A stretch of DNA of 64,000 bases, from positions 1 through 64,000 of IMG/VR virus record IMGVR_UViG_3300042879_003566. One strand, 5' to 3'. The translations under genes were made by a program, and so were the position numbers. This stretch comes from a virus. Within the stretch, counting starts at the first letter, position 1; each line of letters starts with the position of its first letter. Shown piece after piece: positions 27,344 to 45,342 of the stretch. Below the pieces are notes generated by a model. That model saw only the letters and a list, made by a program, of their open reading frames with translations, searched no databases and had not been told where the DNA came from.

Positions 27344-28063
27344 TCAGCATTCATCGGCGCATCGATCTTCAGGAAGAAGGTCTCTTGGATACTCGGATGA
27401 CGCCAGGTCCACTGAGGACTTTCCATAGATTCGAGAGGAGCGGATGGAATATTCTTGAAAGACCTTGACTCCTTGGGGGAGTAGCTGACCAGCTTGGTGG
27501 GCACTGCGGATTGCATCAAGGTTTGGGAGAACGTTTGTTTTATTAGAAGGTTCAATCCTTTCAGAAAGGATTTCTCCTGACATTGAACGTAACACAGTTC
27601 GCTTGGTTGTGGTGACTTCTTCTTCAACACAAAAGTGCTGTCGTTCTTCAGAAGACCAAAACTCCGGATCCGACTTGATTTCAACAGTTAAGTCTTTCTT
27701 TTTAACAAGAGTGAACTGATAGTTGCGGCCAGTAATTTTATTGGCATCAACCGGTAGCACCCGCTTCAAATAATTGAGCAGGTGCTTGAGGCTATCGACT
27801 TGGGACTCGTGATGCTTTTGGGCCTTTAGGATAAGACCCTTTTCTTTTTTGATCCGCTCAACAGCATCCTCATGGGCTGCCATGGCGTAGTAGATACGAT
27901 CAATCTTTTCAGACCGTAGGGTAATACAAGCTTCCAGCTCTGCTCGCGCCAAGTCTTGGGACTCAGGAGTGAGGAGAGGAAGAGAGCGTTCCAGGGCACC
28001 ATAGTGCTCGTATAGCTGGATGACATTCAGCTCTTTGAGCTTAGTGTGAGTGATTTGAGCCAT
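27344..28063 (-). CDS. Siphovirus Gp157-like protein
   Basis: Coiled coil with EKIDRI; C-terminal PNLDAIR...G...PQGV. Confidence 0.6.
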   Translation of the reverse strand: MAQITHTKLKELNVIQLYEHYGALERSLPLLTPESQDLARAELEACITLRSEKIDRIYYAMAAHEDAVERIKKEKGLILKAQKHHESQVDSLKHLLNYLKRVLPVDANKITGRNYQFTLVKKKDLTVEIKSDPEFWSSEERQHFCVEEEVTTTKRTVLRSMSGEILSERIEPSNKTNVLPNLDAIRSAHQAGQLLPQGVKVFQEYSIRSSRIYGKSSVDLASSEYPRDLLPEDRCADEC

Positions 28064-28253
28064 GGCTTGATTTGTGTTGGAATGGTGTTACGGCTAATCA
28101 GGCAATAACCATCAGCCGTTTTGAAAGTGTGATTGAAGTTTATTGAGTGTGTAGGCCAGCAGCGCTGCGGCTGCTGTCCAAAGAAGATCACGGACAACAG
28201 AAGTAATGCTTGAAAGAATGAAGTCGAACATTGGATGGTGTGGTTAAAAAGCT

Positions 28254-28280
28254 GGTCAGTTTAACGTCATGACCAGGACG
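28254..28280 (-). promoter_or_regulatory. H-type RNA pseudoknot, copy 1
   Basis: CGTC-CT-GGTCA-T-GACG-TTAAAC-TGACC. Confidence 0.7.
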
Positions 28281-28285
28281 GAGAC

Positions 28286-28768
28286 TCAAGCTGACGTTTC
28301 CGCCGAGTCGTCGAAGCAGTCTACCAGGTCTGTCAAGCCAACCTTGGTGACTGTTACAAGGTTTGCAATGTAATCCGTCAATGCTTCAACCTTGGCATTG
28401 ACAGAGTCCAGTTTTTCGGACAGTTCTTCGCGACTTGGTGAAATAAAGTCAAGGGTTTCTTCTTTGAAGGTGTCAGGGTTTTCTTTGCGTTGAATCTTGC
28501 GGGCGTCATCGTTTGTTGAATAGAGAACATCGGTAAACAAATCGTATTTAGTTTTTTCAGAAGGCTTGGCATAACCAAAGTCCTTTGCACATTTTTCAAT
28601 GGCTTTGTCAAATTCAAAATACAAGTACAGCAAATGTGCTGCTTCTTGCAAGAACAGATCCTTGTAGCGGTCAAACTCAAGGCCGTAAGTATCAAGTGAC
28701 ATGGGGAAAATCGACATCAATGGCGGTTTGTAAAGCTTTAAGGACAAAGTCCTGCTGGTGTTGTTCAC
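28286..28768 (-). CDS. Hypothetical protein (start uncertain)
   Basis: ORF in the early-arm run. Confidence 0.5.
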   Translation of the reverse strand: MNNTSRTLSLKLYKPPLMSIFPMSLDTYGLEFDRYKDLFLQEAAHLLYLYFEFDKAIEKCAKDFGYAKPSEKTKYDLFTDVLYSTNDDARKIQRKENPDTFKEETLDFISPSREELSEKLDSVNAKVEALTDYIANLVTVTKVGLTDLVDCFDDSAETSA

Positions 28769-29069
28769 CCCAGCTGGTCCATTCTGCTAGATCTGGGTCG
28801 GTATCGTCCCACTCAATGTGGATACAACACCCACCATCGTCTTCTTCAATCACCTCTAGCTGCAGCTTCGTTATCCAAGTGTTGTTCGACATGGGCAATC
28901 AACATGTTTTGAACATAGTCTTCGTGATGCATCCTAAGGTCTGCAGCCATCTTTACAAGTTCCCAGTGAGTGTCTTCTGGAACTTCAAGGTCATAGCGTT
29001 GGTAGTTGCTCATGAAATTAACAGTTGGTTGCGTTGCAAGTTGACGAGCGTATTCAAGGATGTCGTCAG

Positions 29070-30005
29070 TCATTTTTTGGTTGTAGTTTTGAGTTGAGGC
29101 AAAGCAACACCTGGGAAAGGCACGTAGCCTGACTCCAGCATGTTATCGAACAAAGTCCAGGCATCATGCTGGGTGAACACCTCCTTTGGTTTGTAGGTAC
29201 GCCAGTGGGTTAGCGGTGCTTGTGCACCATGTTTGGTGTGCAGCAACAAGAAACGTCCATCCGTAATGGCATCCGACGGTGGTGCATACCACCAAGCCAC
29301 ACACTTATCAGGTGCGTAGGCAGGACAGGCATTGCGTACTTCAGTACGTTTGCACAGAAGATCTCTGTATTTGTTGAACCAAGTCAGGTGGATGCACCAA
29401 GGTTTGAACCCTTGGATCTCTTGTTGGAATTGCGATAGATGATTGAGCTGACGCTGAAAGGACCCACACGAGCAGCTAGGTTCGCCAAAGCTGGACCGTT
29501 GTTCATTCTCATCCAGTTCAGAGTCCATGTCAACGAGCCGATCCTCAAGCCGAAACCCGTCCGGTGCAACCAGATATCCAAGGTCGGTCTGGTCAGACTG
29601 AAGTACGGCTTTGAGCTGGTCTTGGTCTGAAAGGCGAATGAACTTGTCTGCCCACTGGGCTTGGAGACGAGCGTTAACGGTGTGCGATCCAAGGGCATGA
29701 ACGTAGCTCCATCCTTTGAACATAACGTAGGCATTCTGATTCCAGATACTTGGACCCCTGTAATTGGGGCCAAGGTAAGCAAAGAAATCTTTTAGCCTGT
29801 TGGTAAAAGAAACAAATGCTTCTTTTATTGGTTGGCGTGGATAATCAACTTTGCTACCGTCACGGTAAAGCACACGGCAAAGGTCATCAAAAAGATAGAT
29901 GCCCGTGACATCGGCTTCATTGAAGTCCGGGAACGCACGGCGTATATTCGTCCGTGTGTAGATGAACGTTTGAGCTTCATTAAGTTCAAGCAGAGTTTCA
30001 GTCAT
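29070..30005 (-). CDS. SWIM zinc-finger domain protein
   Basis: CSCGSF...WCIH. Confidence 0.55.
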   Translation of the reverse strand: MTETLLELNEAQTFIYTRTNIRRAFPDFNEADVTGIYLFDDLCRVLYRDGSKVDYPRQPIKEAFVSFTNRLKDFFAYLGPNYRGPSIWNQNAYVMFKGWSYVHALGSHTVNARLQAQWADKFIRLSDQDQLKAVLQSDQTDLGYLVAPDGFRLEDRLVDMDSELDENEQRSSFGEPSCSCGSFQRQLNHLSQFQQEIQGFKPWCIHLTWFNKYRDLLCKRTEVRNACPAYAPDKCVAWWYAPPSDAITDGRFLLLHTKHGAQAPLTHWRTYKPKEVFTQHDAWTLFDNMLESGYVPFPGVALPQLKTTTKK

Positions 30006-30316
30006 AGCAGATTGGTGTGGTGTGAAATGTGTCAGATGAACAGATCGGGATCTTGTCCTGACCGCTGGAGCTTAACACGTTCTTGTTCCTTGAGGTAGGC
30101 GGATTTACCAACCTTGTAGGTTGCGTAGCCAAGTGCTGCCCAGGCAACGGGATTACCAAGGACAAGAAGTGCACCGGCTCCAATGGCGCCAAATGTTCCT
30201 GCAGTTTTAAGAACTGCTTTGTGCTCTGGTTTCATGAGGTGATTGTTAATACATTTGGAAAAAGATAAACGGTGTTTACTATAGAAGTAAAATTAAGTAA
30301 CAATTGAATACATTCC

Positions 30317-30580
30317 ATGGATCAAATTAAGTATGTGTCGCTGTCTCAATTCCAAATCGAACCATCGTTAGACGATAAGTTTTGGGAAGAGAAGCTAAAG
30401 CGCACAATCCAGGAATGTAATTCGGTTAGTGCATTGAAAGAAATAGCGACCCTCTTAGCGAGGATCGCTACCCAAAGACAAGGTGTAATAAGGGGATTGG
30501 TACAAGATATGTTCATCTTTAATAACGTTGCCGTTAATCAAGATGATCTTGCCAACCCCCAGGTTGAATCAGATCAGTGA
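30317..30580 (+). CDS. Possible NblA-like phycobilisome degradation adaptor
   Basis: SLDDKF...IQE..S...LKE...LL....QR..IRGLV helix-loop-helix pattern; own AT-rich promoter; antisense to neighbours. Confidence 0.35.
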   Translation: MDQIKYVSLSQFQIEPSLDDKFWEEKLKRTIQECNSVSALKEIATLLARIATQRQGVIRGLVQDMFIFNNVAVNQDDLANPQVESDQ

Positions 30581-31669
30581 ATCGTCTTCACCGGTCATTG
30601 GATCACGGGCAGGCAAAGCCTTGACTTCGACATCCGTGGTGCGGGACACAGGAAGAATCTCAACACCAGCCTTGATTCCATAGGCACCGCCAAGCTTTTC
30701 AGCATCTTGCCGTGCGTGTTGGTTGATGTAATCGCTGAACATTTCCTGGAACTTCCAGGTGGATTCACGATCTTCATCAGGAATCGAGAGGCGATTCAAT
30801 GATTCGATTGCAGTTTCCTGATCGGAATAATCAGGGATGTCAAACGATTCAATAGCGCAGATCTCAACGTTGTTGGCACCGCGCATCTCATTGGCAAGCA
30901 CCGGAGCAAAGACGGTGGTTGCATAGAACTTCTCGTTGAATGCAAGAGGAACTTCAGAGTCCAGTGCTTTGCTCAGACACTTGGACATTTCCTTCTCATA
31001 CATCTTGATCTTCTCAGACACGTCGGTGCCATTAAGACCCTTCAAAGTCAAGACCATGGGGATCTTGTGGGCACGCTTGTTGTCTTCCGTCAGGATGTAA
31101 ACAAGGTACTTGGTACGCACACTGTACTTGCGCTTGTACATCTCACCTTTGCTATTGGCAAGGTCGGATGCAATCTTATCGGCTTCAAACAATTCTTTAA
31201 CGTCTGGATCCTCAAAGGTTCCAATCGTCTGCCTCATCCCAGTTGTTTCCTCAACCATAAGGGGAGAACGTAGAAGGACTTGAAGTCGAGGCTCAGTAAA
31301 ATTGAGTCCTTCTTCCACTGAAGTATTGGGAGCCATACCAAAAGTTTGCTTGTAGTTCCAGATAAGTGAACCTTTAGCAAATTGATCTTCAGTGGCGTTC
31401 CATCCACAAGTGTCAAGGTCTGACTTCCGCACGAACCAACCTCGTGTCTTGGATTTGTTGAGAGGTTGGATGGTGACGAGATTCTGGTATCCGGACACAA
31501 ACTTTTTATCTTGGAAAAGTTTGAAGGAATCCAGGCCACGGGTGGCAAGAGCAGAGGTTTTCTTCATGGTCAAAGTCGTAGTAGGTTTCTTGGGAGAAAA
31601 GGAATCAACTTTGGATTGGAGTTCATCCATCCAAGCTTCATCCATCATGTCAACAGGAGTCGTTGTCAT
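30569..31669 (-). CDS. Hypothetical replication/recombination-associated protein
   Basis: Large ORF next to SSB; acidic C-terminus. Confidence 0.6.
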   Translation of the reverse strand: MTTTPVDMMDEAWMDELQSKVDSFSPKKPTTTLTMKKTSALATRGLDSFKLFQDKKFVSGYQNLVTIQPLNKSKTRGWFVRKSDLDTCGWNATEDQFAKGSLIWNYKQTFGMAPNTSVEEGLNFTEPRLQVLLRSPLMVEETTGMRQTIGTFEDPDVKELFEADKIASDLANSKGEMYKRKYSVRTKYLVYILTEDNKRAHKIPMVLTLKGLNGTDVSEKIKMYEKEMSKCLSKALDSEVPLAFNEKFYATTVFAPVLANEMRGANNVEICAIESFDIPDYSDQETAIESLNRLSIPDEDRESTWKFQEMFSDYINQHARQDAEKLGGAYGIKAGVEILPVSRTTDVEVKALPARDPMTGEDDSLI

Positions 31670-31692
31670 GGTTGGTTCGTAGTAGAACAACA

Positions 31693-31718
31693 GATGCTTT
31701 TAACGTCATCCCAGGACG
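31693..31718 (-). promoter_or_regulatory. H-type RNA pseudoknot, copy 2 (stem 2 degenerate)
   Basis: CGTC-CT-GGGA-T-GACG-TTAAAA-GCATC. Confidence 0.5.
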
Positions 31719-31768
31719 GGCGCCTAGTCTAGGAGTGACCAGGCGCTATGGAACATCAGCGTTTGTTA

Positions 31769-32584
31769 TCAAAACGGTGCGTTGTCGTCATCTTTGGATG
31801 GGCTGCCGTATTGACCAGGGAGATCAGGCAGTCCGCTTTCACCATGACCCCAAGGATCAGGTTGTTCATCCATAGTGCGACCACCCCACAGTGAACCAAC
31901 ATTCCCTTCGGATGCAACAGTTGTTTGGGGCTGGATCGGAGCGGAACCATCGACTGCCTTGGGAGACAGCGTCATCTTCTTAAGTTCGATCTTAGTTTGT
32001 ATTTTCTTTTCCCTTGAATCTTTATCGATCCAGGAATCAGTAACCAGTCGACCCTTAATTGTTAAGCCCGTTCCTTTGCGGGTGAAGTTACACAGAAGTT
32101 CTGCGTAGTTAGGCTTATCTTCTGCGTTGTTAATTGCGTAGAAGTTAAAGAGATCAGATTGATTGCGACCAGTATTAACCGCAAGGGTTTGGTTGCAGAT
32201 CATCAAACCACTTGGTGTGGTTTTAAAAGCACGTTCATCTTCGTGGTTGACATCTTTGACGCAACGTCCACTAAGGATGACAGTGTTAAGAATCGGAAAT
32301 GTCTCTGCATTAACCATGCCAATGACACCACCATGCAAAGAGAGTTGCCTGGTATCTAAGTCATAGCGGAGCGTGGAATCATGCAGGTAAATTCCCATGT
32401 TCTTTTTCATGCGAGCAAAACGTTCAGCCGTCTTGCCGTAGATGTTAAGTTCGATGGGAGTGTCTGCTTTCTTAGCGCCGACAGCCGGTAGGCTAATCAT
32501 GCAGCGCATTGCAGTTGAGTTGGCGCCTGTAAAAACTTCCCGAGGATCTTCAAGAAGTTGAGCGCAACCAGCAAAGAAATTCAT
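31769..32584 (-). CDS. ssb: Single-stranded DNA-binding protein with two OB folds
   Basis: LNTVILSGR...KGTGLTIKGRL...W.DK; acidic tail ending DDDNAPF. Confidence 0.75.
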   Translation of the reverse strand: MNFFAGCAQLLEDPREVFTGANSTAMRCMISLPAVGAKKADTPIELNIYGKTAERFARMKKNMGIYLHDSTLRYDLDTRQLSLHGGVIGMVNAETFPILNTVILSGRCVKDVNHEDERAFKTTPSGLMICNQTLAVNTGRNQSDLFNFYAINNAEDKPNYAELLCNFTRKGTGLTIKGRLVTDSWIDKDSREKKIQTKIELKKMTLSPKAVDGSAPIQPQTTVASEGNVGSLWGGRTMDEQPDPWGHGESGLPDLPGQYGSPSKDDDNAPF

Positions 32585-32604
32585 TGCAAGAGAAGTAGGG
32601 TGGA

Positions 32605-32631
32605 AGGCAGTTTAACGTCATACCTGGGACG
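32605..32631 (-). promoter_or_regulatory. H-type RNA pseudoknot, copy 3
   Basis: CGTC-CC-AGGTA-T-GACG-TTAAAC-TGCCT. Confidence 0.7.
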
Positions 32632-32642
32632 GGTCCATAGAT

Positions 32643-34466
32643 TTAGTGGGTATCAGACCAAGTCTTACCAACTCGGGAGTCACCTTCAATCAAGCATTGA
32701 AAGTTAAAAAACTCCTGGGCCTGGGGGAATGAAAGCATAGCTTGCTCCCTGATTTTTTCTGTGTGATCTGGATGGCATGCAATTTGGATTTCATCATGCA
32801 CCATCAACAGCTGCTCCCAGTCTTGACCGTAGACCAGACCAAGGTTTTGTTCAATGTTTTGTTGCGTAAAAACAACAACTTGTTTCATAAGGATTGCACC
32901 TGCGGATTGCAGGAGAACATTCAATCCTTTGAACGCAGAGCGACAATGCAGAACGCGACGATCAAGACCACGCAAATAACCCCGGGATCCAATAGTTTCA
33001 TCAATCTGTTGTTTAAGTTTCTTTAATGCAGGTACACCTTTCATGAATGAATTGATAGCATTACTTCCCAGTTGCCGGAGAACTAATTCATCCTTTTCAT
33101 CAGGGTCGATAATGGTACCAGCCTTGGCAGCACCACATCCGTAAAGCATTCCATACAATAACCGCTTACTAATATCACGAGTTGCTACGCCAAACTGCTC
33201 TTGGTTATACGTATGGATATCAATTTCCGGGTTAACAACTAGAGAAGCATACTCTCCGTTGTCCCAAAGGGCCAAGTATCCAGCAAGGCAGCGCAGCTCA
33301 AGTGCTTTAGCGTCAATACCAATGAGGTCCCACCCGTAAGGAGCATGGAATAAATTGCGACATTCCTTTCCATATGGGGAGTAAGACGCAGGCACTTGGC
33401 CCATGTTTGGATTACGGTGTGCGCACCGCCCAGTGATGCAACCGTTAGTAATAAGGTCGCCGTGGATACAGCCAGATTCGTTGTTGAACAACTTGATCCA
33501 AGCATTGTTGCCATCTGCAATTTGACCAAGACGTTTTTTGACCAGCATGTATTCTGCCAATGGCTTGGCTTCTGGGAAAGGCAATGTCTCTAATACCTCA
33601 TCATTAAGGATTGGATTTCCTTTCTCAGTAGTTTTTTCTGGTCGCCATCCGTACTTCTGCGCAAGTCGATTAGCAATCTGGTCACGAGATCCAGGATTGA
33701 ATTCTTCAATGCAGACTTTTTCAAATGGGACACCTTTGACATAGCCACGGGTTTTGTTGTTGACCTTGGGAGTAAACCAAGAGCGATGTTCAATAGGCGG
33801 GAAGACTTTCTTTAACTCGTCTTCAAGTTCTTTTTGTCTTGTGCGTAGTACATCCACAAGATCAAAAGCTGCATCAAGATCAAAAGGAACACCTGATCTA
33901 ACTTGTCGATCAATTGCAAGCGCAAAGTCGTGCTCCAGTTTGAGCGCCGCCTCTGGGTAGTGTTGCTTGCAGATGTGTTCCCAAAGTTTCTTAGTAACTT
34001 CCACGTCTTGGATGCAGTACTTAAGCATCTCTTCTGAATAGACGGAGAAGTCCTTGAAGTTGATCTTATGATCGGCCAAGCGCCATCCCCACGCCTTAAG
34101 CGATGCGGATCCACGTAGGTTCGGTGAAACCTGCGAATATTGTTCGATGTCAAGGTCATAGAGAAGTTCTTTGGGCCAGATCAATCGTGTGCAAATGAGT
34201 GTGTCAATGATGCGTGATTTGCATGTGAATGAATGTAGTTTTTGTAGGACTGGAATGTCATAGAAAATAATATTGTGCCCGATCAAAACATCAGCGGTTG
34301 CCAGATGAGCAAGAGCATCAGCAATGTGATCAGGCCCATAAGTAAAAGTTTGTTTGCGTCCAATGTCATAGAGAACAATGCAGTGGATAACTGTGACAGC
34401 ATCATAAAGATTGTCAGACTCAAGGTCAAAGACCAACCAGGTTTCACTTACGGAATCTGGCTTCAT
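32643..34466 (-). CDS. polA: DNA polymerase family A (T7-like, 3'-5' exonuclease plus polymerase)
   Basis: VFDLESD; GHNIIFYD; YCIQDV; DAKALELR; RDISKRLLYGMLYG (Tyr at the T7 Y526 position); VHDE. Confidence 0.93.
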   Translation of the reverse strand: MKPDSVSETWLVFDLESDNLYDAVTVIHCIVLYDIGRKQTFTYGPDHIADALAHLATADVLIGHNIIFYDIPVLQKLHSFTCKSRIIDTLICTRLIWPKELLYDLDIEQYSQVSPNLRGSASLKAWGWRLADHKINFKDFSVYSEEMLKYCIQDVEVTKKLWEHICKQHYPEAALKLEHDFALAIDRQVRSGVPFDLDAAFDLVDVLRTRQKELEDELKKVFPPIEHRSWFTPKVNNKTRGYVKGVPFEKVCIEEFNPGSRDQIANRLAQKYGWRPEKTTEKGNPILNDEVLETLPFPEAKPLAEYMLVKKRLGQIADGNNAWIKLFNNESGCIHGDLITNGCITGRCAHRNPNMGQVPASYSPYGKECRNLFHAPYGWDLIGIDAKALELRCLAGYLALWDNGEYASLVVNPEIDIHTYNQEQFGVATRDISKRLLYGMLYGCGAAKAGTIIDPDEKDELVLRQLGSNAINSFMKGVPALKKLKQQIDETIGSRGYLRGLDRRVLHCRSAFKGLNVLLQSAGAILMKQVVVFTQQNIEQNLGLVYGQDWEQLLMVHDEIQIACHPDHTEKIREQAMLSFPQAQEFFNFQCLIEGDSRVGKTWSDTH

Positions 34467-34740
34467 CTTGAATTGAGAGGTCTTGACCAGAGAGCTTGTC
34501 ATTGTTCTTGTTAATCCACGCCAAGATTTGCTGCGCACCCGCACGGTACGGATGAGAGAAAATCTTGTTGAGAGCTACGTCAGAGTCTAACGGAATCAAC
34601 AGAAATTGATTGGATTTATTACACGCAGTAATGGCGTGTGGCACTCCATTTTTCCAGGTTGCAATGACGTAGCTCACGGTGAACGTTGAAAGAACGCTCA
34701 GATAATATCCGATTTATTGAGCAATGCAAGATGTGCGGAA

Positions 34741-35502
34741 TTACTTTCGATTTGATTTGCCGTATCCCACAAAGTCACCATCTTTCTTGCGTTGAGACAA
34801 CGCCTTGCTGGCTTCTGTACCAGCGCGTTGACTGCCATGTACCAGCAGTGCAAACGGCTTGTCGCCCAAGCAATGGCTATCGTCGTGATCGATTTCCAAT
34901 CCCAGCTCAGTTGCCTGCTGTTCTGTGTAGACCACATAGGCAATGCGCTTGAACACCTTGGGGTGTTTGGGAATTAGGTAATCGAGCGTACCACCATGGG
35001 ACGCAGTGAGATAGAAGTTAGGTGGAATGATGTCGGCAAGGTTAAGCCACATGCCCAACGACTTGGTGTAGGCATAGAAGGTTTGGTTGGGCCGCTCGGT
35101 TGCAGCCATGAACCAAGCCTTCATGTAGTTCTCTGTCCAGAAATCACCAGACTCATGAACCCGCACCAATTGTTTGGGCGGCATCATGGTCAAGGACAGA
35201 TCAATGAGGTCACGCAGCAGTGTGACTTGGTTGCCATTGGAATACAACGTTTCACGCAGCAAATCCCAGTTGTGCCAGCGTGCTTCCCTGACGTTGGGCC
35301 GCACTTCTGACATAGCTGCAAAGCAGCGGAACTCATCTGCTGTGGTACCAGTGGTCTGGGGCAGATCAGTGATGGTACCTGTGGCACGGTCAGCAAAGGT
35401 CTTGCAAACACCAGCGTGCGGGCAGGAGTAACCCGCTGGAAGCGAGAAGATCAAACGGTTCTTGAGCTTACCGTTACCGGTGGAAAACTTGAGGAGTTTC
35501 AT
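34741..35502 (-). CDS. Gp88-like protein (radical-SAM-related phage family)
   Basis: FSLPAGYSCP.A..C...CFA; VRVHESGDF; FYAYTK. Confidence 0.65.
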   Translation of the reverse strand: MKLLKFSTGNGKLKNRLIFSLPAGYSCPHAGVCKTFADRATGTITDLPQTTGTTADEFRCFAAMSEVRPNVREARWHNWDLLRETLYSNGNQVTLLRDLIDLSLTMMPPKQLVRVHESGDFWTENYMKAWFMAATERPNQTFYAYTKSLGMWLNLADIIPPNFYLTASHGGTLDYLIPKHPKVFKRIAYVVYTEQQATELGLEIDHDDSHCLGDKPFALLVHGSQRAGTEASKALSQRKKDGDFVGYGKSNRK

Positions 35503-35536
35503 GGTGTGGTGTGGATAAAAGATAAGCAAAGCTTAT

Positions 35537-35563
35537 GGATGAGTTTAAGGACATCCCAGGTCC
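35537..35563 (-). promoter_or_regulatory. H-type RNA pseudoknot, copy 4 (stem 1 covaried)
   Basis: GGAC-CT-GGGA-T-GTCC-TTAAAC-TCATCC. Confidence 0.55.
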
Positions 35564-35608
35564 GTTGATGTGTTACATGATGAACGACATCATATACAAC
35601 AACGATCA

Positions 35609-35632
35609 TATACTTTCCGTATCAATAGATAC
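35609..35632 (+). promoter_or_regulatory. -10 box (TATACT) followed by palindromic NtcA-type site
   Basis: TATACT 35609-14; GTATC-AATA-GATAC (GTA-N8-TAC) 35619-32, 8 nt before ATG 35641. Confidence 0.55.
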
Positions 35633-35640
35633 AGAATCTT

Positions 35641-35793
35641 ATGGAACTAACGTATCGCGGCTGCAAGTATGACAAAGGGCAACAAGCCAAGAAGGATAGG
35701 GACTGGTGGAACCTGACCCATCGCCCTTGGCTGCGCCTGACATACCGTAATATTGGATACCTTCCTTACCTGATCGGAGGTCAAATCAAATGA
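35641..35793 (+). CDS. DUF4278-like small protein (50 aa)
   Basis: MELTYRGCKY...LRLTYRNIGY: doubled LTYR(G) motif; too short for the ORF track. Confidence 0.65.
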   Translation: MELTYRGCKYDKGQQAKKDRDWWNLTHRPWLRLTYRNIGYLPYLIGGQIK

Positions 35794-35906
35794 ACAAGGC
35801 ACTGATTGTTTACTTAATTGATCAAAAGAAAAAGACGGCACGTAAGGATATTGAATCCAAACATGCCATCAAAGAATTAAAAAAACAACCGGCCTCGACT
35901 TTTTAA
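35790..35906 (+). CDS. Small basic protein (38 aa)
   Basis: ATGA overlap with the upstream gene; MNKALIVYLIDQKKKTARKD... Confidence 0.55.
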   Translation: MNKALIVYLIDQKKKTARKDIESKHAIKELKKQPASTF

Positions 35907-35919
35907 TTCCCGTTCATCA

Positions 35920-35945
35920 GCCTCCGGATCAAACGGAGGTTTTTT
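35920..35945 (+). terminator. Rho-independent terminator
   Basis: CCTCCG-GATCAAA-CGGAGG followed by T6. Confidence 0.75.
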
Positions 35946-36576
35946 ATTGGAAGACAGCTTCTCCGATAACAGGGAATTGGTCACAGAAGATTTGCTGGAT
36001 GTCTCGGGCGATTTGTTGGTGTTCGAGTTGGGTTCCATTGGCAGTGCGCAGTTGAAGGTAGTGTATCCACGAACGGAGTGTACCGTTCATGTATAGACGT
36101 GTCTGTGTCGAAAGCGGCAAAACCGCACGAGCACATTCCTTGGCGACACCGTTACTGATCATCTCACGGTACAGATGTTCAGCGTCTTCATATAGATGAC
36201 TGATGCGACGGTAGTAACCAGAGATTAAATCAGAATCCAAATCATCAATACTGTTTTGACGATTCTTCTGATCTTGACGACGCAGGTGAGGGATCACAGC
36301 GGAGCCAAGTTCACTGGCATCTGCATAGCGTTGACTGAATTCCTGGAAACTAAATGAACGATGGCGCAAGATCTGTGGTGCGATTGCACGTGTCGTTTCA
36401 ATCTCAACGCACATGTTTGCCATCTCATACGGCGACCAATGGTTGTTGTTAATTAGATAACGCAGCAACCGTGGTGCAGTGTCCATGTTGTCTTGATTGC
36501 GCGGTGCAGAAACACGCGCCATCTTGACGATCATTTCTTCTGCGTTGGGCGTTGCCCATACCAATTTGACAGGCAT
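35944..36576 (-). CDS. thyX: FAD-dependent thymidylate synthase
   Basis: HWSPYE; RHRSFSFQEFSQRY; ECARAVLP; GTLRSW. Confidence 0.95.
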   Translation of the reverse strand: MPVKLVWATPNAEEMIVKMARVSAPRNQDNMDTAPRLLRYLINNNHWSPYEMANMCVEIETTRAIAPQILRHRSFSFQEFSQRYADASELGSAVIPHLRRQDQKNRQNSIDDLDSDLISGYYRRISHLYEDAEHLYREMISNGVAKECARAVLPLSTQTRLYMNGTLRSWIHYLQLRTANGTQLEHQQIARDIQQIFCDQFPVIGEAVFQ

Positions 36577-36578
36577 CT

Positions 36579-36878
36579 TTATTCTCCAGGTACCACGGTA
36601 TTTTTGCTGAGTTGATCGAGATGATCAATAGGACAAATACGCATTTGCGCGTGCTCCGTTGGAGAAGCAAGGTGGTCCCATTGGACGACAAGGACTTTCA
36701 TCTTGGTACCACGGGAGTCACGCTTTTCCTTGAAGTCAATGACCGTACCGTAGCGTTGTGTCCTGTGTTGTGCGATGCGTTCACGCACATCTTGTTTGTT
36801 GGTGAAGATCCCATGGGTCTTGGGACGTTCAGCAACGCGATCACCAATGGTGTATTTGAACTGTGCTTTGTTTGCCAT
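36579..36878 (-). CDS. Hypothetical protein (SH3/KOW-like)
   Basis: YTIGDRV...YGTV...VQWD. Confidence 0.5.
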   Translation of the reverse strand: MANKAQFKYTIGDRVAERPKTHGIFTNKQDVRERIAQHRTQRYGTVIDFKEKRDSRGTKMKVLVVQWDHLASPTEHAQMRICPIDHLDQLSKNTVVPGE

Positions 36879-37222
36879 CAGATGTGAGTCCAAGCTTTTC
36901 GGTTAACAATGCGTGAGATGTACGATACGCTGATGCCGTATTTTGCAGAGATTGCTTGATGGTTAAAACCCCAGGCATGCATACGGCGAATATGCAGTAC
37001 GTTCTTTTCAGTCAGTACAGCATTACCGTTGTCAGCTCCACGGGCAACGTTACCAGGCCTTGGTTTACCCTTAGGAGGACCCGGCTTCAAGACTTCGTAT
37101 CGCTCAATGGTGCGGTACTTAGCATCACATGAAAGACATCGGCAATAGCGTTTAGTAAAACCAGGGAAGTGATTGGTGCAGGTGACGCGTGTGTACTTGC
37201 TTGAGCAAGACGGGCAGTTCAT
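36878..37222 (-). CDS. Zinc ribbon plus helix-turn-helix protein
   Basis: CPSC...RYCRCLSC...TIE; LTE..V..IR...ISAKYGIS...ISRI...W. Confidence 0.65.
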   Translation of the reverse strand: MNCPSCSSKYTRVTCTNHFPGFTKRYCRCLSCDAKYRTIERYEVLKPGPPKGKPRPGNVARGADNGNAVLTEKNVLHIRRMHAWGFNHQAISAKYGISVSYISRIVNRKAWTHI

Positions 37223-37581
37223 TGGGGATCAAGTGAACAGGGTGCGTTATCAATAGATTGATTACGTATTTCTGCATACTTATCTAACTGCAAAGAATCC
37301 AATAAATACAGAGTATTTTCTGGGCCAATGATCTTGAATGCATCAACAATTAGATCATGCTTACGCAAAGGGATGCGGTAGTAATCCAAAAGGATTTCTT
37401 CTGCACGATCAAAGTCATCGATGGTTCCAGTCAACCGTTCAACAACAGTGCTTGGCATGTTGTCAACAATGTTACCAACAATGGCATCGATGACTGCTGA
37501 CCAAGTCTCGGATGGAATCATCGCGATGACTTTATCAACCAAGTCAAGATCAATGGGATCGTTTTGAGACTGACTGATCAT
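37219..37581 (-). CDS. Hypothetical protein
   Basis: 120-aa acidic ORF. Confidence 0.55.
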   Translation of the reverse strand: MISQSQNDPIDLDLVDKVIAMIPSETWSAVIDAIVGNIVDNMPSTVVERLTGTIDDFDRAEEILLDYYRIPLRKHDLIVDAFKIIGPENTLYLLDSLQLDKYAEIRNQSIDNAPCSLDPQ

Positions 37582-37585
37582 AAGG

Positions 37586-37610
37586 AAAAAGCCCCCGGTT
37601 TCCCAGGGGC
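37586..37610 (-). terminator. Rho-independent terminator
   Basis: GCCCCTGG-GAAA-CCGGGGGC followed by T5; nearly identical to the terminator at 62938. Confidence 0.75.
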
Positions 37611-37631
37611 CGTCTGCACTTCTCGTGTAGT

Positions 37632-37994
37632 TTAGACCGCTTGAACCTGGGTGTCCACCACTGGTTCCATCACGCCAGCTTCTTTGAGTTTATCGAGCAT
37701 GGCGCACATGATTGTGGCGTGCTGATGGGTTTGTTCCATGAAGTGTTTGGCACGATCAGCGGTAATGGTGTGAGTACAACCATTGGGTTCGGTGTACTTC
37801 CAACTGCCATCCGGTTGAGGATCGCCTTGGAGCGCAAGGCGTTCAGAGTTGTGAACGTAGCGCAGTTCCAAGTTGTGGTAATCCTTGAGACCGTCTGGTG
37901 CAGTCCAAGTTGCACCGAGGTTGTAGCGATTGTCTTCGTCAGAAAACGCATGGAATTCAGGGATAACTGATTTGAAAGCAGCAAGAATTTGCAT
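37632..37994 (-). CDS. Hypothetical protein
   Basis: 120-aa ORF, ACC-ATG context. Confidence 0.6.
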   Translation of the reverse strand: MQILAAFKSVIPEFHAFSDEDNRYNLGATWTAPDGLKDYHNLELRYVHNSERLALQGDPQPDGSWKYTEPNGCTHTITADRAKHFMEQTHQHATIMCAMLDKLKEAGVMEPVVDTQVQAV

Positions 37995-38012
37995 GGTGTT
38001 GAGTAAGGGAAT

Positions 38013-38088
38013 TGGTACCCGAGGTGAGATTCGAACTCACGCTGGAGCGATTTTAAGTCGCTTGCCTCTTCCGCTGGGCTACTCGGGC
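38013..38088 (-). tRNA. tRNA-Leu(UAA) with short variable loop
   Basis: GCCCGAG/CTCGGGT-A-CCA; AGCGA-CTTAAAA-TCGCT; GTGAG-TTCGAAT-CTCAC; 76 nt. Confidence 0.88.
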
Positions 38089-38089
38089 G

Positions 38090-38133
38090 CACTTGGACTT
38101 ACGCTTACATCAATGGATGCATGCTGCCAAGTG
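38090..38133 (-). promoter_or_regulatory. GGCA/GTAAGTCC internal-loop hairpin, copy D
   Basis: CACTT-GGCA-(stem-loop)-GTAAGTCC-AAGTG, ending 1 nt before tRNA-Leu. Confidence 0.55.
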
Positions 38134-38355
38134 TGGTCATGGGGCAATGGCTCAGTGCCATATTCCCATGTGTCGTAGTCTTCTTCATTACGTGGATCGT
38201 CTTCGATCAGTACGTAATGCGGAGAGTTGTCATGAATGAAATCTCCGATGTTTGCCATAGCCATAGCCAGGAGTTGATCATCGGTGTAGTCGTGTTCCAT
38301 GGTGAAGGACCAGCCCTAGTATCGAGGCTAAGGCTGGTCAATTTGGCTTCGGCCT

Positions 38356-40062
38356 TTAAGAGGCTAGCTGTTCATTGCGGGTTTGCAATGCCTCATGGAA
38401 CCCTTCGGTGTATTGGTCTCGCTGATCAGGCGTCAGGTTTTGATTAGATAAACCTTTGATTTGATCAACGGACATCATGCCACCGTCAACCTTGAGTTGA
38501 ATGGTGAACCTGGGTTTACCTTCTACCATACAAAGCACAATGAAGTGCTTCTTCTTACGAACACCTTCAGCGTAACCAGAGGCAGAGCCAACGCAATTGC
38601 GTACGGCTTGACCCCACATGGCGAGCTGATGCGTGTCGTGTGGCTGGAAGAACGACCAAGTTTCACCATCAACAGATACTTTGATGGGTTCAGGGAATAA
38701 ATCCTGCGGTAGCTTTTCATTTGGATTTTGAATCTTCCATGACTCTGCCTGGACATGGTCATGGAATTCATTGATGCGCCAACGTTTGGGAGGATTTAGA
38801 TCCTTGTGCTCAAGCACGCGGTTAAGCATGTTGATTGTGTCTGACCATTCGTAGAATCCATAAACGTGTAGACCAAGGTCACGTTCCATGGTGACGTTAG
38901 AGCCATTAGCACGTACACGTTGCTGCTCTTCTTCATAGTATTTGGCAAAGATGCCAAAGAAAGAAGCAACAGGCATGTGTTGACGCAACCAATCAATAGT
39001 CTTGTCTTGCACGGCGTACGAACGAATGCGTATGCCTAGCAATTCTTGAATGTGGTTTTGATAATAATCAATGGGACAATCAGGCCAGATGCCATGAACA
39101 TAGCTAATGGAATCAACTAGTTTCTTAGCTTGATTAAAAGGTTGTTTGATGTTGACTTGTAGTTTGTTGTTCTTATCTTCATAGACAGCAATAGATTCAT
39201 CTAGTTTTTGCTGGACCCACTTACGGAAGAATGGTGTATTAAAGATGTGTTTGACATTGCGTAGTGGCAGCCAATCAAGGTATGCAGGCGTTCTTAATTC
39301 AGTAAGTGAATAGAAGTTATCAACAGTTAGCTGCCAAGTTGATTGCTCTTCTTGACTTACAAAGACAGGAGGAATCTCAAGAGCTTGGGCAATGCCAGCA
39401 CATTGAAGGCGGCTAAAAAGGAAACGGCTATCATCCCAGGTGGGAATTGATTCTTGCAAGGCTTTACTGAATTCTTCAACAGCCTTGGCAATGTTCCGTC
39501 CCTTTTGGGTATAACTACCAAGATAACGAGCACGCCATTCACGATCTTCTTTGCCATCAATGATGTCTTGACGAGTTACAAGACGACGGTCAATGAAGAA
39601 TGTTGAGCGGCCAATCTCAATCTTGTTGTAGTTATCAATGTTGTTGATGATATCGCGTGGAATTGTCTTACGTGCTGATGCAGTGTCACGGAAGACACGT
39701 GCATAGCCATAGACATACTTGTCTTCTTGGCCAGCTGGCGGCAGCCATCCGGCGTACCAACATTGTTCGAAGTGATAAAGGATTGCGCGTGTCTGGAGAC
39801 GGGCCTGCGGAGTAGCAACATCCACAGGCTTGGTAAATGAGTGGTGACGATCTGGCGCAAGCTGCGTGTTAATCGAATCAATTGCATCTTGCTGCAGTGA
39901 TTCACGCACCACGTCATAAGGAATGACATGCGGGATGTTGCCAAGGGGATACTTGGCTTTCTTGGCAGGAGATGATTGCTTTTGTTGGCGAACCAAAGCT
40001 TTGAGCTTGGGATCGTAGGCAATCAACTCGGTCTGCAAGTTTTGAGGAAGTTGGAATTGCAT
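38356..40062 (-). CDS. PcfJ-like domain protein
   Basis: EFHDH...L..WGQAVRNCVG...Y...FTIQL...QIKGLSN. Confidence 0.7.
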   Translation of the reverse strand: MQFQLPQNLQTELIAYDPKLKALVRQQKQSSPAKKAKYPLGNIPHVIPYDVVRESLQQDAIDSINTQLAPDRHHSFTKPVDVATPQARLQTRAILYHFEQCWYAGWLPPAGQEDKYVYGYARVFRDTASARKTIPRDIINNIDNYNKIEIGRSTFFIDRRLVTRQDIIDGKEDREWRARYLGSYTQKGRNIAKAVEEFSKALQESIPTWDDSRFLFSRLQCAGIAQALEIPPVFVSQEEQSTWQLTVDNFYSLTELRTPAYLDWLPLRNVKHIFNTPFFRKWVQQKLDESIAVYEDKNNKLQVNIKQPFNQAKKLVDSISYVHGIWPDCPIDYYQNHIQELLGIRIRSYAVQDKTIDWLRQHMPVASFFGIFAKYYEEEQQRVRANGSNVTMERDLGLHVYGFYEWSDTINMLNRVLEHKDLNPPKRWRINEFHDHVQAESWKIQNPNEKLPQDLFPEPIKVSVDGETWSFFQPHDTHQLAMWGQAVRNCVGSASGYAEGVRKKKHFIVLCMVEGKPRFTIQLKVDGGMMSVDQIKGLSNQNLTPDQRDQYTEGFHEALQTRNEQLAS

Positions 40063-40091
40063 GGTGAGTTCAGAGTAAGTTCGTAGTGTGT

Positions 40092-40118
40092 GAGCAGTTT
40101 AATGTCATGCTCAGGACA
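40092..40118 (-). promoter_or_regulatory. H-type RNA pseudoknot, copy 5
   Basis: TGTC-CT-GAGCA-T-GACA-TTAAAC-TGCTC. Confidence 0.7.
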
Positions 40119-40123
40119 GGGGA

Positions 40124-40381
40124 TCAGTCTAGATCGTAATCGGAGGTGTCGACGAGTTGCCAGTGAAGATCGAGCTGATCAAGATAGCAGCAGAAGCCAT
40201 CTTCATCAGTAGGGATTTGTTGTTCCTCATCCAGCTCAAAGCTTGCTGTGCAAAGAGCTGGAGCCCATTCTTCAGGTTCGAAATATGTTGCCCGATAGAG
40301 CAAACGCATTTCGTCAACCACTGCTGTAACTGTGACATTGGTACCTTCGATGATGGTGTCTTCAATAGCAAGGACAGACAT
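40124..40381 (-). CDS. Acidic hypothetical protein
   Basis: 85-aa ORF. Confidence 0.55.
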   Translation of the reverse strand: MSVLAIEDTIIEGTNVTVTAVVDEMRLLYRATYFEPEEWAPALCTASFELDEEQQIPTDEDGFCCYLDQLDLHWQLVDTSDYDLD

Positions 40382-40384
40382 GAG

Positions 40385-40582
40385 TCAGACCTGAATGAAT
40401 TGCTTGGGTTTCATGAAGTCAGATGTTGGTCCATACTTCTCGATAAGATCAGGGAATGCGTCGAGCAAACGCTGACGATTCACTGGATCTGCAACGCGCA
40501 GTGCTTGTGCAATCGATGAAACAAATGAACCACCATGTGATTGCATGAGGCAAATCATGGCGGTCAGCTGAGCTGAATTCAT
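40385..40582 (-). CDS. Small hypothetical phage protein
   Basis: M..HGGSFV..IA.A...ADP.N..RL..AFP. Confidence 0.6.
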   Translation of the reverse strand: MNSAQLTAMICLMQSHGGSFVSSIAQALRVADPVNRQRLLDAFPDLIEKYGPTSDFMKPKQFIQV

Positions 40583-40604
40583 GTGTTGAATTGCAATGGA
40601 ATGT

Positions 40605-40631
40605 AGGCAGTTTAACGTCATACCCAGGACG
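40605..40631 (-). promoter_or_regulatory. H-type RNA pseudoknot, copy 6
   Basis: CGTC-CT-GGGTA-T-GACG-TTAAAC-TGCCT. Confidence 0.7.
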
Positions 40632-40636
40632 TATCT

Positions 40637-40834
40637 TTAGAATAATTTAATGTTTCGTTTGCTCAATCCTGTGCCAGGAATTGAGAACGATCCAAGCAGT
40701 CCAGACGGACGTGCGTTGAGTGTGAATTGGATGGGGCCAAGTCGTATCGATTTGGTGAACGACTTGATGCCCCGTTCCGTGATGTTGACTCCGGCAATAG
40801 TTTTGTCGAAGTTAAAGGCTGAGCGTTCAGTCAT
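40637..40834 (-). CDS. Small protein, DUF4236-like
   Basis: KSIRLGP...SIPGTGLS. Confidence 0.5.
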   Translation of the reverse strand: MTERSAFNFDKTIAGVNITERGIKSFTKSIRLGPIQFTLNARPSGLLGSFSIPGTGLSKRNIKLF

Positions 40835-41795
40835 AACAAGAATTGGATTCGGCCAATGTAAATCTCAATTGAAAGTATTCATCTTGATCTTTGTCTTTGG
40901 CGTAGTAACGGGCTTCAAATCCACCAGAGCCAACAACGTTGTTCTTGATGGATTCTCTTAGCAAATGGCGTGCCATTGCTTTAAGTCTTGCGATGGATGG
41001 AACTGCGTGCCCATTACCTTCAGTTGTTTGCCACTGCCAGTCAACCGCTGTCATAGCAATGTAAACACGTTGAAAATCAAACGTGTCAATTACGTTATCA
41101 ATCAATGATTCTTTTGAGTCCATTAGTTGTAGATCATGTCGAGGGACAAAATGATTGCACTAAGGAATAACATGGAGCAGAGAAGGATCATCATTTGAGG
41201 TCATCAGGAAGGAGCATTTGAGTGTCTTCGTCAGACATGTTGGTCATCATGAACTTCTCTCCGTTGGGTGAAATGAAACCACCAACGAAACCAACTCCGT
41301 ACTTGTCAGCTGATTCCTTCATCTTTGCTACGAGTTGCATAGCGGATAGACGTTGGAGATCAATGGAGTCTGGGATGCGGGGAGTGTTGTCAGGCATTGG
41401 AATGAAGTGGAATGATTGATGGAGTGTAGCAGGGAATAGGGGGAGTAAACATTAGTTTATCTAATAGAATTAATGGTTCCCCCCTGGTACTCCCTGCGGG
41501 GTTGTAGGGGTTCAGCTGTGCATAGCTTGATGTTCTTTCCATGCATTGGTATGCATTTCATCCAAAGTCAAAGGCGGTTCATTGACTTCGTCTGGATCAA
41601 AGTCAGCATCAAGGTAATTCACAAGCATTGGAATGATTTCCTCTTCGAGTAAGCAATAGATGGACGGAGTGAGATGCTGGTCCATCTGATGCCGCTTCGC
41701 TTCACGTGCCATGACATCTTGGAGGATAGTCAATGCTTCACGCACGTGGACATACTCGTTTTGTTCCATGGTGTGGTGTGTAGGTTGAATGGGAT

Positions 41796-41850
41796 GACCT
41801 GGGACTTACACCATTATTGAGAAGAGTTCTCAATTGTGGATGCCCAGGTC
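41796..41850 (-). promoter_or_regulatory. GGCA/GTAAGTCC internal-loop hairpin, copy C
   Basis: GACCTG-GGCA-(long stem-loop)-GTAAGTCC-CAGGTC. Confidence 0.6.
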
Positions 41851-42726: not shown

Positions 42727-42758
42727 ATTTGTAGTACTGACGTACTAACGGACGTGGG

Positions 42759-45317: not shown

Positions 45318-45342
45318 GTTAATTCAAAGTTTGGAAAATTTA

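Follow-up and report, generated by a model that had tools for sequence, protein, structure and literature searches.

To our knowledge, exoribonuclease-resistant RNAs (xrRNAs) have so far been known only from viruses of eukaryotes. One of them is coremin (xrRNA-C), which is carried by beny-, cucumo- and many other eukaryotic RNA viruses and is a 20-mer (GUCCGAAGACGUUAAACUAC) in which a hairpin of 3 bp, its YGAD loop closed by a C-G pair, is joined by a conserved spacer (GUUAAACUAC) to a second, purely structural hairpin (PMC6546385; PMC10520033). The present analysis concerns a small RNA pseudoknot that is found in six copies in a 64,000-nucleotide stretch of viral DNA (positions 1 to 64,000 of the IMG/VR record IMGVR_UViG_3300042879_003566; this whole stretch is called the window below), and that is best described, on the sequence comparisons reported here, as a natural variant of coremin.

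Previous work on coremin defines the features with which the phage element can be compared. Loop 1 follows the consensus YGAD or YGNNAD, and loops of 6, 7 and 8 nt also work, the only hepta- and octaloops tested being CGAGUAA and CGCAAAGC; the C-G closing pair is needed; within the spacer, A15-A17 and C18U19 are indispensable, whereas U13U14 may vary (PMC6546385; PMC10520033). Coremin acts in vitro without protein cofactors, stalls Xrn1 one nucleotide ahead of hairpin 1 and also stalls scanning ribosomes, and its hairpin 2 is strictly required for Xrn1 resistance (PMC6546385; PMC10520033). It also stimulates -1 frameshifting, and a screen for such stimulation was run in Escherichia coli (PMC10321173). 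In the form named xrRNA-WCC (Sanxia picorna-like virus 5 and screen hits), the pairs 6-20, 7-19 and 8-18 of a second stem (S2) were proven by compensatory mutants, and this form acts as a ribosome roadblock and frameshift stimulator without hairpin 2, yet needs hairpin 2 for Xrn1 resistance (PMC10321173). Furthermore, a flaviviral xrRNA blocks bacterial RNase J1 too (PMC5760640).

A covariance model (R1) was built from related copies of the phage element and scanned over the whole window with filters off. It returned exactly six sites, all on the minus strand, with scores of 26.5-44.8 bits, the next best match reaching 10.2 bits. These are the six sequences listed in the original prediction, which had been made from the window sequence alone; all are present at their minus-strand coordinates and read as written. 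They are spread over 12.4 kb, at gene junctions and on the sense strand (Table 1). The loose pattern GWCNTTAAA has 10 matches in the window against 4.1 expected, a number reached in 0 of 100 shuffles. For comparison, relatives were taken from 26 loci around the polymerase gene (62-99% protein identity) and from the isolate S-EIVl; together with the window they give 106 R1 copies, 106/106 of them on the sense strand.

Both stems of the pseudoknot are conserved as pairings in these copies. With a first stem (S1) of 4 bp and an S2 of 5 bp, 89.1% of the alignment cells are paired (76.1% in shuffles), and the covariation score is 0.435 against 0.190 in shuffles, a level reached by 0/500 of them. 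This score falls to 0.04-0.13 when the partners are slid by 1-3 columns, and an independent MAFFT alignment gave the same covariation picture. Double changes and G-U pairs are seen in both helices. Indeed, (i) S1 takes the forms CGUC/GACG, UGUC/GACA, AGUC/GACU, GGUC/GACC and GGAC/GUCC, with U-G intermediates, the further covaried form UCUC/GAGA being that of a Vibrio phage family, and (ii) S2 has five covarying pairs, with double changes in four of the five and 88% of cells paired, and its forms include GGUCA/UGACC, GAGCA/UGCUC, AAGCA/UGCUU, GGGCA/UGCCU, AAACA/UGUUU and GAAC/GUUU. Apart from an invariant A-U first pair, S2 is free sequence. The G-U pairs, which are many, would become A-C mismatches in the opposite strand, and the constraint therefore lies on the sense-strand RNA. 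The earlier claims that stems 1 and 2 covary, and that selection acts on the RNA fold of the sense strand, are thereby upheld. Copies 2 and 4, which had been called imperfect in stem 2, are indeed so; they belong to a subclass in which the loop has 7 nt and S2 is shifted and weaker. In copy 2 this stem is GGAU/AUCU with a G-U last pair, and in orthologues of the site it is GGAU/AUCC. As judged from this covariation, the element is a small H-type RNA pseudoknot within polycistronic early/replication mRNA, predicted to consist of S1 (4 bp), a 2-nt loop L1 (CY), S2 (5 bp), a 1-nt junction and an A-rich loop L3 (UUAAAC).

The same data bear on the idea of a DNA-level site, either a promoter or a palindromic operator bound by a dimeric protein, in which RNA pairing would be incidental. 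The motif lies upstream of genes, the TAAACT within it resembles a -10 hexamer, and GTC-N8-GAC resembles CRP/NtcA-type binding sites. However, the G-U pairs that would be mismatched in the other strand, the conserved pairing of an otherwise free S2 and the strict strand specificity (106 to 0) speak against it, as do the negative result of a consensus sigma-70-type promoter scan at the motifs and the occurrence of the same motif in RNA viruses. A promoter using TAAACT would place the start of transcription downstream of the knot and could not account for the covariation. We give hardly any credence to this explanation, which the covariation largely refutes.

Column conservation was counted over 88 distinct rows. 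The loop-closing C-G pair (columns 8-17) is present in 76/88, the exceptions being mostly out-of-register rows of the 7-nt-loop class. G17 and C19 (3' half of S1), the linker AAA (A23-25) and the A closing S2 are invariant, and each U of the linker UU is a U in 80/88. The UUAAA linker, reported earlier as invariant, is so in the six window copies, and its AAA is invariant in the 88 distinct relatives. The loop reads C-Y-R-R-N-N-A-D, with C first in 82/88, A penultimate in 88/88 and a pyrimidine, not G, in second position, whereas the last loop/junction nucleotide is U in 74 rows, A in 8, C in 6 and never G. The position equivalent to C18 of coremin is C in 72 rows and A in 14, and that equivalent to U19 is U in 74 and G in 14.

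The link to coremin came from a full-text search for the invariant string GACGUUAAA (PMC10520033). The core GUC..A-D-GAC-G-UUAAAC-U is common to coremin and the phage knot. In both, a C-G pair closes a loop that begins with a pyrimidine and ends with A-D, the AAA is essential (coremin) or invariant (phage), the UU is tolerant, enlarged loops are tolerated (coremin) or present (phage), positions are intergenic or untranslated, and tandem copies occur. The resemblance to xrRNA-WCC extends to an antiparallel pseudoknot between the hairpin-1 loop and the nucleotides after UUAAA, in the same register, with the invariant phage A-U pair at the 7-19 position and an A-rich loop predicted to lie in the minor groove of S1. 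Differences concern (i) the loop, which in the phages has 7-8 nt (CYRRNNAU) and no G at position 2, unlike the YGAD or YGNNAD loop of coremin; (ii) S2, which has 3 bp inside a 4-nt loop in xrRNA-WCC and 5 bp in the phages, where it starts at 7-19 and extends 3'-wards; (iii) the last loop nucleotide, which is unpaired (U, A or C, never G) in the phages, unlike in xrRNA-WCC; (iv) the spacer positions A20 and C21 of coremin, which are free covarying nucleotides in the phage knot and are not conserved there because they are part of S2; (v) hairpin 2, which coremin has and needs for Xrn1 resistance and of which most phage copies have no separate equivalent; and (vi) the setting, namely 5' leaders between cistrons of double-stranded DNA phages of bacteria as opposed to 3' untranslated regions (UTRs) of eukaryotic RNA viruses. 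With regard to hairpin 2, its place is filled by the covarying 5-bp helix between the loop and the 3' side, and a following hairpin occurs in some copies and lineages.

The phage knot is thus best described as a natural coremin variant (xrRNA-C / xrRNA-WCC) in which an extended S2 would replace hairpin 2. Since the published rules require hairpin 2 for Xrn1 resistance, the knot is only a candidate for full membership of the nuclease-resistant class. The statement that the element belongs to no named family holds for Rfam, which contains no such family, and fails for the literature, since the core matches the coremin Xrn1-resistant RNA (PMC6546385, PMC10520033, PMC10321173). The Rfam search proposed with the original prediction gave no match at the sites: with Rfam 15, only tRNAs reach the gathering score in the window, and at E up to 10 nothing overlaps the sites in window 27500-45500, nor those in 10 loci of other lineages. 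No paper describing the motif in phages was found in a literature search. The element is a predicted coremin variant in a new host domain, uncatalogued in Rfam.

Other known RNAs are more distant. Flaviviral and tombusvirid/solemovirid xrRNAs are proposed, like the phage knot, to block 5'-to-3' exoribonucleases in a protein-independent, direction-specific way; they are larger (about 45-70 nt), form a ring around the 5' end, share no sequence with the phage knot and gave no Rfam match here. The -1 frameshift pseudoknots of luteovirids (BWYV type) are built on an overall plan similar to that of the phage knot, in which both stems are short, L1 has 2 nt, one junction nucleotide is extruded and the loop of 6-7 nt is rich in A. 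Their sequence is different, however, and the phage knot has neither a slippery heptamer (0/94 contexts) nor an overlapping -1 open reading frame (ORF). The pistol ribozyme, with its hairpin, GUUAAA and loop pseudoknot, was considered and discarded (no Rfam pistol match, nothing conserved past S2); riboswitches with a small pseudoknot, such as preQ1-I, were set aside as well, since Rfam gave no match and the genes under control are not metabolic ones.

The motif is widespread in viruses. The exact pattern CGTCCY-N6-GACGTTAAAM occurs in at least 111 viral stretches, and a complementary S2 is present in 91/96 sites among the matches listed. One site lies in an RNA-virus-like contig (L040, IMGVR_UViG_2738542472_000001, 3,959 nt) that encodes a tombusvirus-type coat protein (PF00729). 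BLAST searches of phage records with 33-50-nt queries find only copies with a similar S2, and the resulting counts per host are biased lower bounds; in this sense, at least 83 Staphylococcus phage records have the knot between the minor-head and scaffold genes. The gene order is portal, knot, scaffold in Geobacillus phage D6E; the linker is AAAAAC in Mycobacterium phage Labelle; the knot stands ahead of the primase gene in the crAss-like phage cr7_1 and has the S1 form UCUC/GAGA in a Vibrio phage family; and copies also occur in Nostoc, Microcystis, Moorella, Arthrobacter, Lactobacillus and Paracoccus phages. The scope first given to the element, early genes of cyanophages, fits the window, whose copies lie in the early/replication arm, and is too narrow in view of the scaffold genes of other phages and of the RNA-virus-like contig. 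Genuine copies are also present in bacterial genomes of many phyla, where they probably sit in prophages. They are mixed there with chance matches: about 40% of the exact-pattern matches in bacterial genomes have no S2 pairing and are due to chance, as expected for 596 Gb, and only S2-paired matches were used.

The position of the knot between two genes also follows rules. Of 94 unique S-EIV1-like contexts, 42 have a stop triplet at a distance of exactly 5 nt upstream of S1, and TGA, TAA and TAG interchange at orthologous sites. The peak is sharp (46 copies at 5 nt vs 3 at 6 nt) and recurs in independent IMG/VR matches (38/104 at 5 nt vs about 7 at other offsets); in S-EIVl, according to the depositors' annotation, a coding sequence ends 5 nt upstream of two of the four copies and 6 nt upstream of another. 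Downstream, an ATG-initiated ORF follows in 93/94 contexts, the median distance between the S2 end and the ATG being 22 nt (18-24 nt in 62/93). The intervening leader has a G content of 5.3%, compared with 22% for the strand as a whole; zero structure is predicted for 78% of leaders vs 27% of controls, and a sequence like that of Shine and Dalgarno (SD) was found in 1/93. In phages with SD-type starts, the distance from knot to start codon is 30-90 nt. For the window, it had been claimed that the knots end 20-34 nt before the next ATG and that three of them start exactly 5 nt after a stop. Both claims agree with our measurements (Table 1), the three copies being those at 28280, 40118 and 40631, and a fourth (31718) starts 5 nt after the TAG of a mini-ORF; the generality of the stop 5 nt upstream and the G-depleted leader were missed.

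Among 52 IMG/VR matches, the downstream genes include 15 scaffold and 6 single-stranded DNA-binding protein (SSB) genes, and an SSB-like gene is preceded by a copy of the knot in nearly all S-EIV1-like relatives.

The reading that we favour, with moderate confidence, is that the knot would stop 5'-to-3' decay as a directional roadblock and so stabilise the cistron that follows. A block of 5'-to-3' exoribonucleases was the first candidate role of the original prediction, and it is now the leading one. As in coremin, the knot would block machines that thread or track along RNA from 5' to 3', in a mechanical and direction-specific manner. Decay begun upstream would halt at the 5' edge of the knot, and the cistron behind it, with its unstructured leader intact, would stay translatable. 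The decay agent could be the exonuclease RNase J, which cyanobacteria and most of the host groups have, or, where RNase J is lacking, RNase E tracking in its 5'-end-dependent mode. Transcript segments with genes in high demand, such as SSB in the window virus and scaffold/capsid genes in other phages, would thereby be stabilised. The knot would be packed between two ribosome footprints, with a stop 5 nt before it and the next ATG about 20-23 nt after it; with the stop codon in the A site, it would begin at about +12 from the P site, that is, at the mRNA channel entrance, so that a terminating ribosome would never unwind it. This reading is favoured because of the kinship with coremin, the arrest of RNase J1 by an xrRNA, the high-demand genes downstream, the variable distance to SD-type starts and the distribution of RNase J in hosts.

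Regarding this distribution, RNase J is encoded in 6/8 host genomes with genuine copies and also in Synechococcus elongatus, which served as a control. R1 matches number 9/150 in Bacilli, 7/150 in the class of the Desulfobacterales host, 4/150 in that of the Anaerolineales host, 0/150 in Gammaproteobacteria and 2/150 in Bacteroidia (a sample that includes one unpublished genome, G404, with no effect on the claim). The two Bacteroidia matches (23 bits) do not look genuine. RNase J was found in 60/61 genomes of the Desulfobacterales host's class, whereas no protein above the cut-off was found in 151 Gammaproteobacteria genomes or in 151 Bacteroidia genomes. Classes with RNase J thus have 20/450 matches vs 2/300 for classes without it (Fisher's exact p = 0.0017), a comparison in which phage phylogeny and the training of the model on cyanophage copies are confounding factors.

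Besides this confounding and the class membership discussed above, several observations weigh against a roadblock to decay. Hairpin 2, which coremin needs for Xrn1 resistance, is absent after S2 in most S-EIV1-like copies. Genuine copies occur where the host has no RNase J, namely in Vibrio phages, crAss-like phages, a Zixibacteria chromosome and a Paludibacteraceae metagenome-assembled genome. Ordinary frameshifter pseudoknots are reported not to resist Xrn1 (PMC10321173). Finally, the 5-nt stop peak is sharper than a mere lower bound on the distance predicts, and may point to a ribosome-linked function.

Accordingly, a knot aimed at ribosomes, which we regard as unlikely, stays a serious rival because of the missing hairpin 2, the hosts lacking RNase J, the phylogenetic confounding and the sharp 5-nt peak. 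It could be an insulating barrier against read-through, sliding or re-initiating ribosomes, a modulator of termination, or a docking/standby site that hands ribosomes to the SD-less leader. The stop codons exactly 5 nt upstream, in both the S-EIV1-like contexts and the independent viral matches, produce the geometry of frameshift stimulators, and the tight spacing to the ATG of SD-less leaders in the S-EIV1-like group would also suit such a role, as would the stalling of scanning ribosomes by coremin and its stimulation of -1 frameshifting also in E. coli, which the Watson-Crick form achieves without hairpin 2. On the other hand, a slippery heptamer XXXYYYZ 4-10 nt upstream was found in 0/94 contexts (1.9% background), and the knot is therefore not a frameshift signal. 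Direct recruitment of ribosomes is disfavoured by the 30-90 nt that separate knot and start codon in SD-type phages, where the knot, moreover, often has no stop nearby or directly follows a terminator-like T-run. Window copies 3 and 4 have no stop at 5 nt, and the same motif in 3' UTRs of RNA viruses meets no translating ribosome.

Returning to the roadblock to decay, its stronger form would make the knot a genuine, protein-independent member of the coremin class, and the first exoribonuclease-resistant RNA family native to bacteria and double-stranded DNA phages, shared with eukaryotic RNA viruses. We advance this form tentatively, as somewhat less probable than the roadblock as such. The upstream ribosome would then terminate at the doorstep of the knot, which would next stop RNase J or RNase E tracking, and the knots would define the 5' ends and lifetimes of single cistrons within long phage transcripts.

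The copy in front of the SSB-like gene raises a different possibility, which is that the knot is the operator of a phage RNA-binding protein. The T4 gene 32 operator consists of a 5' pseudoknot followed by an unstructured leader up to the start codon of the SSB gene, and gp32 acts on its own mRNA by nucleating at this pseudoknot and spreading over the leader. By analogy, the SSB of the phage could use the knot as a nucleation site from which to cover the G-poor leader up to the start codon, and the genes of a replication regulon would then be repressed together at the level of translation. Loop nucleotides as strictly conserved as these would suit recognition by a protein. We consider this improbable. 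The T4 operator is a single copy that is specific to gene 32 and has another sequence, whereas the phage knot is multi-copy, stands before many kinds of genes and occurs in many lineages: the same motif, with the same invariant nucleotides, is found in unrelated phages before scaffold, primase and other genes and in the RNA-virus-like contig. No common phage protein is evident, and coremin acts in vitro without protein cofactors.

A transcriptional role, be it as an antitermination RNA acting in cis (of the HK022 put kind), an attenuator or a terminator-like element, appears very improbable. The copies are intergenic, on the sense strand and multiple, and several lineages have a U-run after S2, such as UGCUUCUUUUUAU in a Staphylococcus phage and GGCUUAUUUUUUU in others, but most S-EIV1-like copies have none. 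Stems of 4 and 5 bp are far weaker than intrinsic terminators, which the scan finds elsewhere, and the presence in RNA viruses speaks against a role at bacterial RNA polymerase. Hexamers of the type TAnnnT are somewhat enriched 2-9 nt upstream; at 7 nt upstream they are found in 14/63 cases, mostly as TAGACT, and a milder enrichment exists upstream of knots in other lineages. TAGACT was rejected as a -10 box, as it is really the Leu-Asp-stop (TAGAC-TGA/TAA/TAG) that ends upstream ORFs, with the three stops interchanging.

The original prediction had also proposed a mimic of the antitoxin pseudoknots of type III (ToxI-like) systems. Such a mimic would counter abortive-infection toxins. ToxI units are small pseudoknots and phages can carry mimics of them. 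This proposal finds no support, as there is neither a tandem array nor a partner toxin: instead of following one another as repeats of 34-36 nt, the copies are dispersed at junctions among replication genes, where stop and start codons set their positions, and no Rfam family matches. We rate it as the least credible of the explanations considered.

If the roadblock reading is true, the principle of exoribonuclease resistance would extend to bacterial mRNA decay, in phages of Synechococcus, Nostoc, Microcystis, Staphylococcus, Geobacillus, Mycobacterium and Vibrio and in crAss-like phages. It could explain how one long transcript gives unequal protein output, for example portal vs scaffold/capsid or polymerase vs SSB. 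Hundreds of natural covarying sequences would become available to solve the disputed fold of coremin; the extended S2 would reveal the long-sought register of the coremin pseudoknot and show that hairpin 2 is replaceable. The knot would further provide a portable 27-nt module to stabilise or insulate messages in synthetic operons. Its function is testable in cultured systems, namely S-EIVl on Synechococcus PCCC-A2c and Staphylococcus aureus phages with RNase J mutants.

The window is taken from the start of a viral record of 80,457 bp, rated complete by CheckV. The virus is a lake cyanophage and a distant kin of Synechococcus phage S-EIVl, an isolate of arctic lake origin. The minus-strand arm at 21-45.5 kb holds the early and replication genes listed in Table 1 and also encodes ThyX; no phage RNA polymerase was seen, and the 879-aa ORF is a primase. 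On the sense strand of this arm, strong intrinsic-terminator-like sites were found only at 37590-37611 and 45298-45317 (minus), which makes transcription of the arm into a few long polycistronic RNAs probable.

Table 1. Pseudoknot copies of the window, with the stop codons, leaders and genes that flank them
Feature	Position	Strand	Description
Copy 1	28254-28280	-	S1 CGUC/GACG, L1 CU, S2 GGUCA/UGACC, junction U, L3 UUAAAC; R1 41.4 bits
Copy 2	31693-31718	-	7-nt loop variant; S1 CGUC/GACG; linker UUAAAAG; R1 26.5 bits
Copy 3	32605-32631	-	S1 CGUC/GACG, L1 CC, S2 AGGUA/UGCCU; R1 44.8 bits
Copy 4	35537-35563	-	7-nt loop variant; S1 GGAC/GUCC (covaried), S2 GGAU(G)/(C)AUCC; R1 27.8 bits
Copy 5	40092-40118	-	S1 UGUC/GACA (covaried), S2 GAGCA/UGCUC; R1 38.4 bits
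Copy 6	40605-40631	-	S1 CGUC/GACG, S2 GGGUA/UGCCU (two G-U pairs); R1 43.7 bits
TGA stop of upstream ORF (28286-28768)	28286-28288	-	exactly 5 nt before copy 1
TAG ending a 10-codon mini-ORF	31724-31726	-	5 nt before copy 2
TGA stop of upstream 85-aa ORF	40124-40126	-	exactly 5 nt before copy 5
TAA stop of upstream 65-aa ORF	40637-40639	-	exactly 5 nt before copy 6
Leader, copy 1 to ATG of 39-aa ORF	28232-28253	-	22 nt; G-poor, unstructured, SD-free
Leader, copy 2 to ATG of DUF5895 gene	31670-31692	-	23 nt
Leader, copy 3 to ATG of SSB-like gene	32585-32604	-	20 nt
Leader, copy 4 to ATG of GP88-family gene	35503-35536	-	34 nt, with a small hairpin
Leader, copy 5 to ATG of PcfJ-like gene	40063-40091	-	29 nt
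Leader, copy 6 to ATG of conserved 65-aa ORF	40583-40604	-	22 nt
39-aa ORF	28112-28231	-	downstream of copy 1
DUF5895 gene	30569-31669	-	downstream of copy 2
SSB-like gene	31769-32584	-	downstream of copy 3
Family A DNA polymerase (polA)	32643-34544	-	early/replication arm
GP88-family gene	34741-35502	-	downstream of copy 4
PcfJ-like gene	38356-40062	-	downstream of copy 5
Conserved 65-aa ORF	40385-40582	-	downstream of copy 6

Individual sites show further particularities. Copy 3 lies 11 nt past the polA stop. In two relatives, L018 (10001-12685) and L022 (10001-12669), the polA match spans about 2,685 nt, compared with 1,899 nt in the window and most relatives, which suggests an insertion (intein, intron or extra domain) in the polymerase gene. 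The mini-ORF upstream of copy 2 (31724-31756, minus) encodes MFHSAWSLLD. In the relative L005 (about 13020-13280), an 86-codon open frame that ends in Val-Leu-Asp-stop stops at the position equivalent to the TAG of this mini-ORF, and the gap after the SSB gene is about 266 nt; because this frame ends at the same place, the mini-ORF may be a deletion remnant that has kept the stop in place. The small hairpin in the GP88 leader, AUAAGC-UUU-GCUUAU, follows copy 4 at window 35506-35530 (minus) and has orthologues in L018, L022 and L025. It is kept in the form AUAAGC-NNN-GCUUAU, with loop changes and one G-U change, and resembles hairpin 2 of coremin.

A second hairpin family, with the invariant internal loop GGCA ... 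GUAAGUCC, was noticed at window 44872-44904, 42682-42726, 41796-41850 and 38090-38133 (minus). Three of these four hairpins lie about 27-30 nt before an ATG and are followed by a leader like that of the pseudoknots (strongly G-poor in two of the three), and the fourth abuts the 5' end of a tRNA-Leu. Different structured modules, pseudoknots and GGCA-loop hairpins, thus seem to occupy the same leader slot.

Some sites in other lineages show additional arrangements. In the RNA-virus-like contig (L040:2383-2614), a pseudoknot with an 8-nt loop is directly followed by a sub-threshold match to the GIR1 lariat-capping ribozyme (37.8 bits; gathering score 100; E 3e-5). Three tandem pseudoknot units, about 75 nt apart, are found at L141:4620-4800, an arrangement that recalls the tandem coremin repeats of some plant viruses; units 1 and 2 each have a short GC hairpin and a U-run behind them, and unit 3 has a different sequence there. 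In Geobacillus phage D6E (L332, about 1497-1535), an outer helix UUGUCC/GGACAA could replace S1 to give one long hairpin, so that a second conformer may exist in this lineage; in L042 and L061, GGACG boxes further downstream might have the same effect. In Firmicute prophage-like regions (L147, L148, L152, L218, L183; Enterococcus, Selenomonadaceae, Gemella), the knot often comes right after a T-run (GGCTTTTTTT-CGTCC) and is then followed by a conserved hairpin, e.g. CGTGG..CCACG; here the pseudoknot seems to belong to a longer leader.

The classical tetraloop coremin 17-mer itself has 67 matches in IMG/VR, among which small RNA-virus-like contigs have the canonical UAC and hairpin 2. It also occurs in 18 large contigs (L265, L273, L274, L282 and 14 others), in essentially two recurring contexts and mostly from one metagenome. 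In these large contigs AUU, AUC or ACU stands instead of UAC and no hairpin 2 is evident; these 17-mers are probably not functional coremin.

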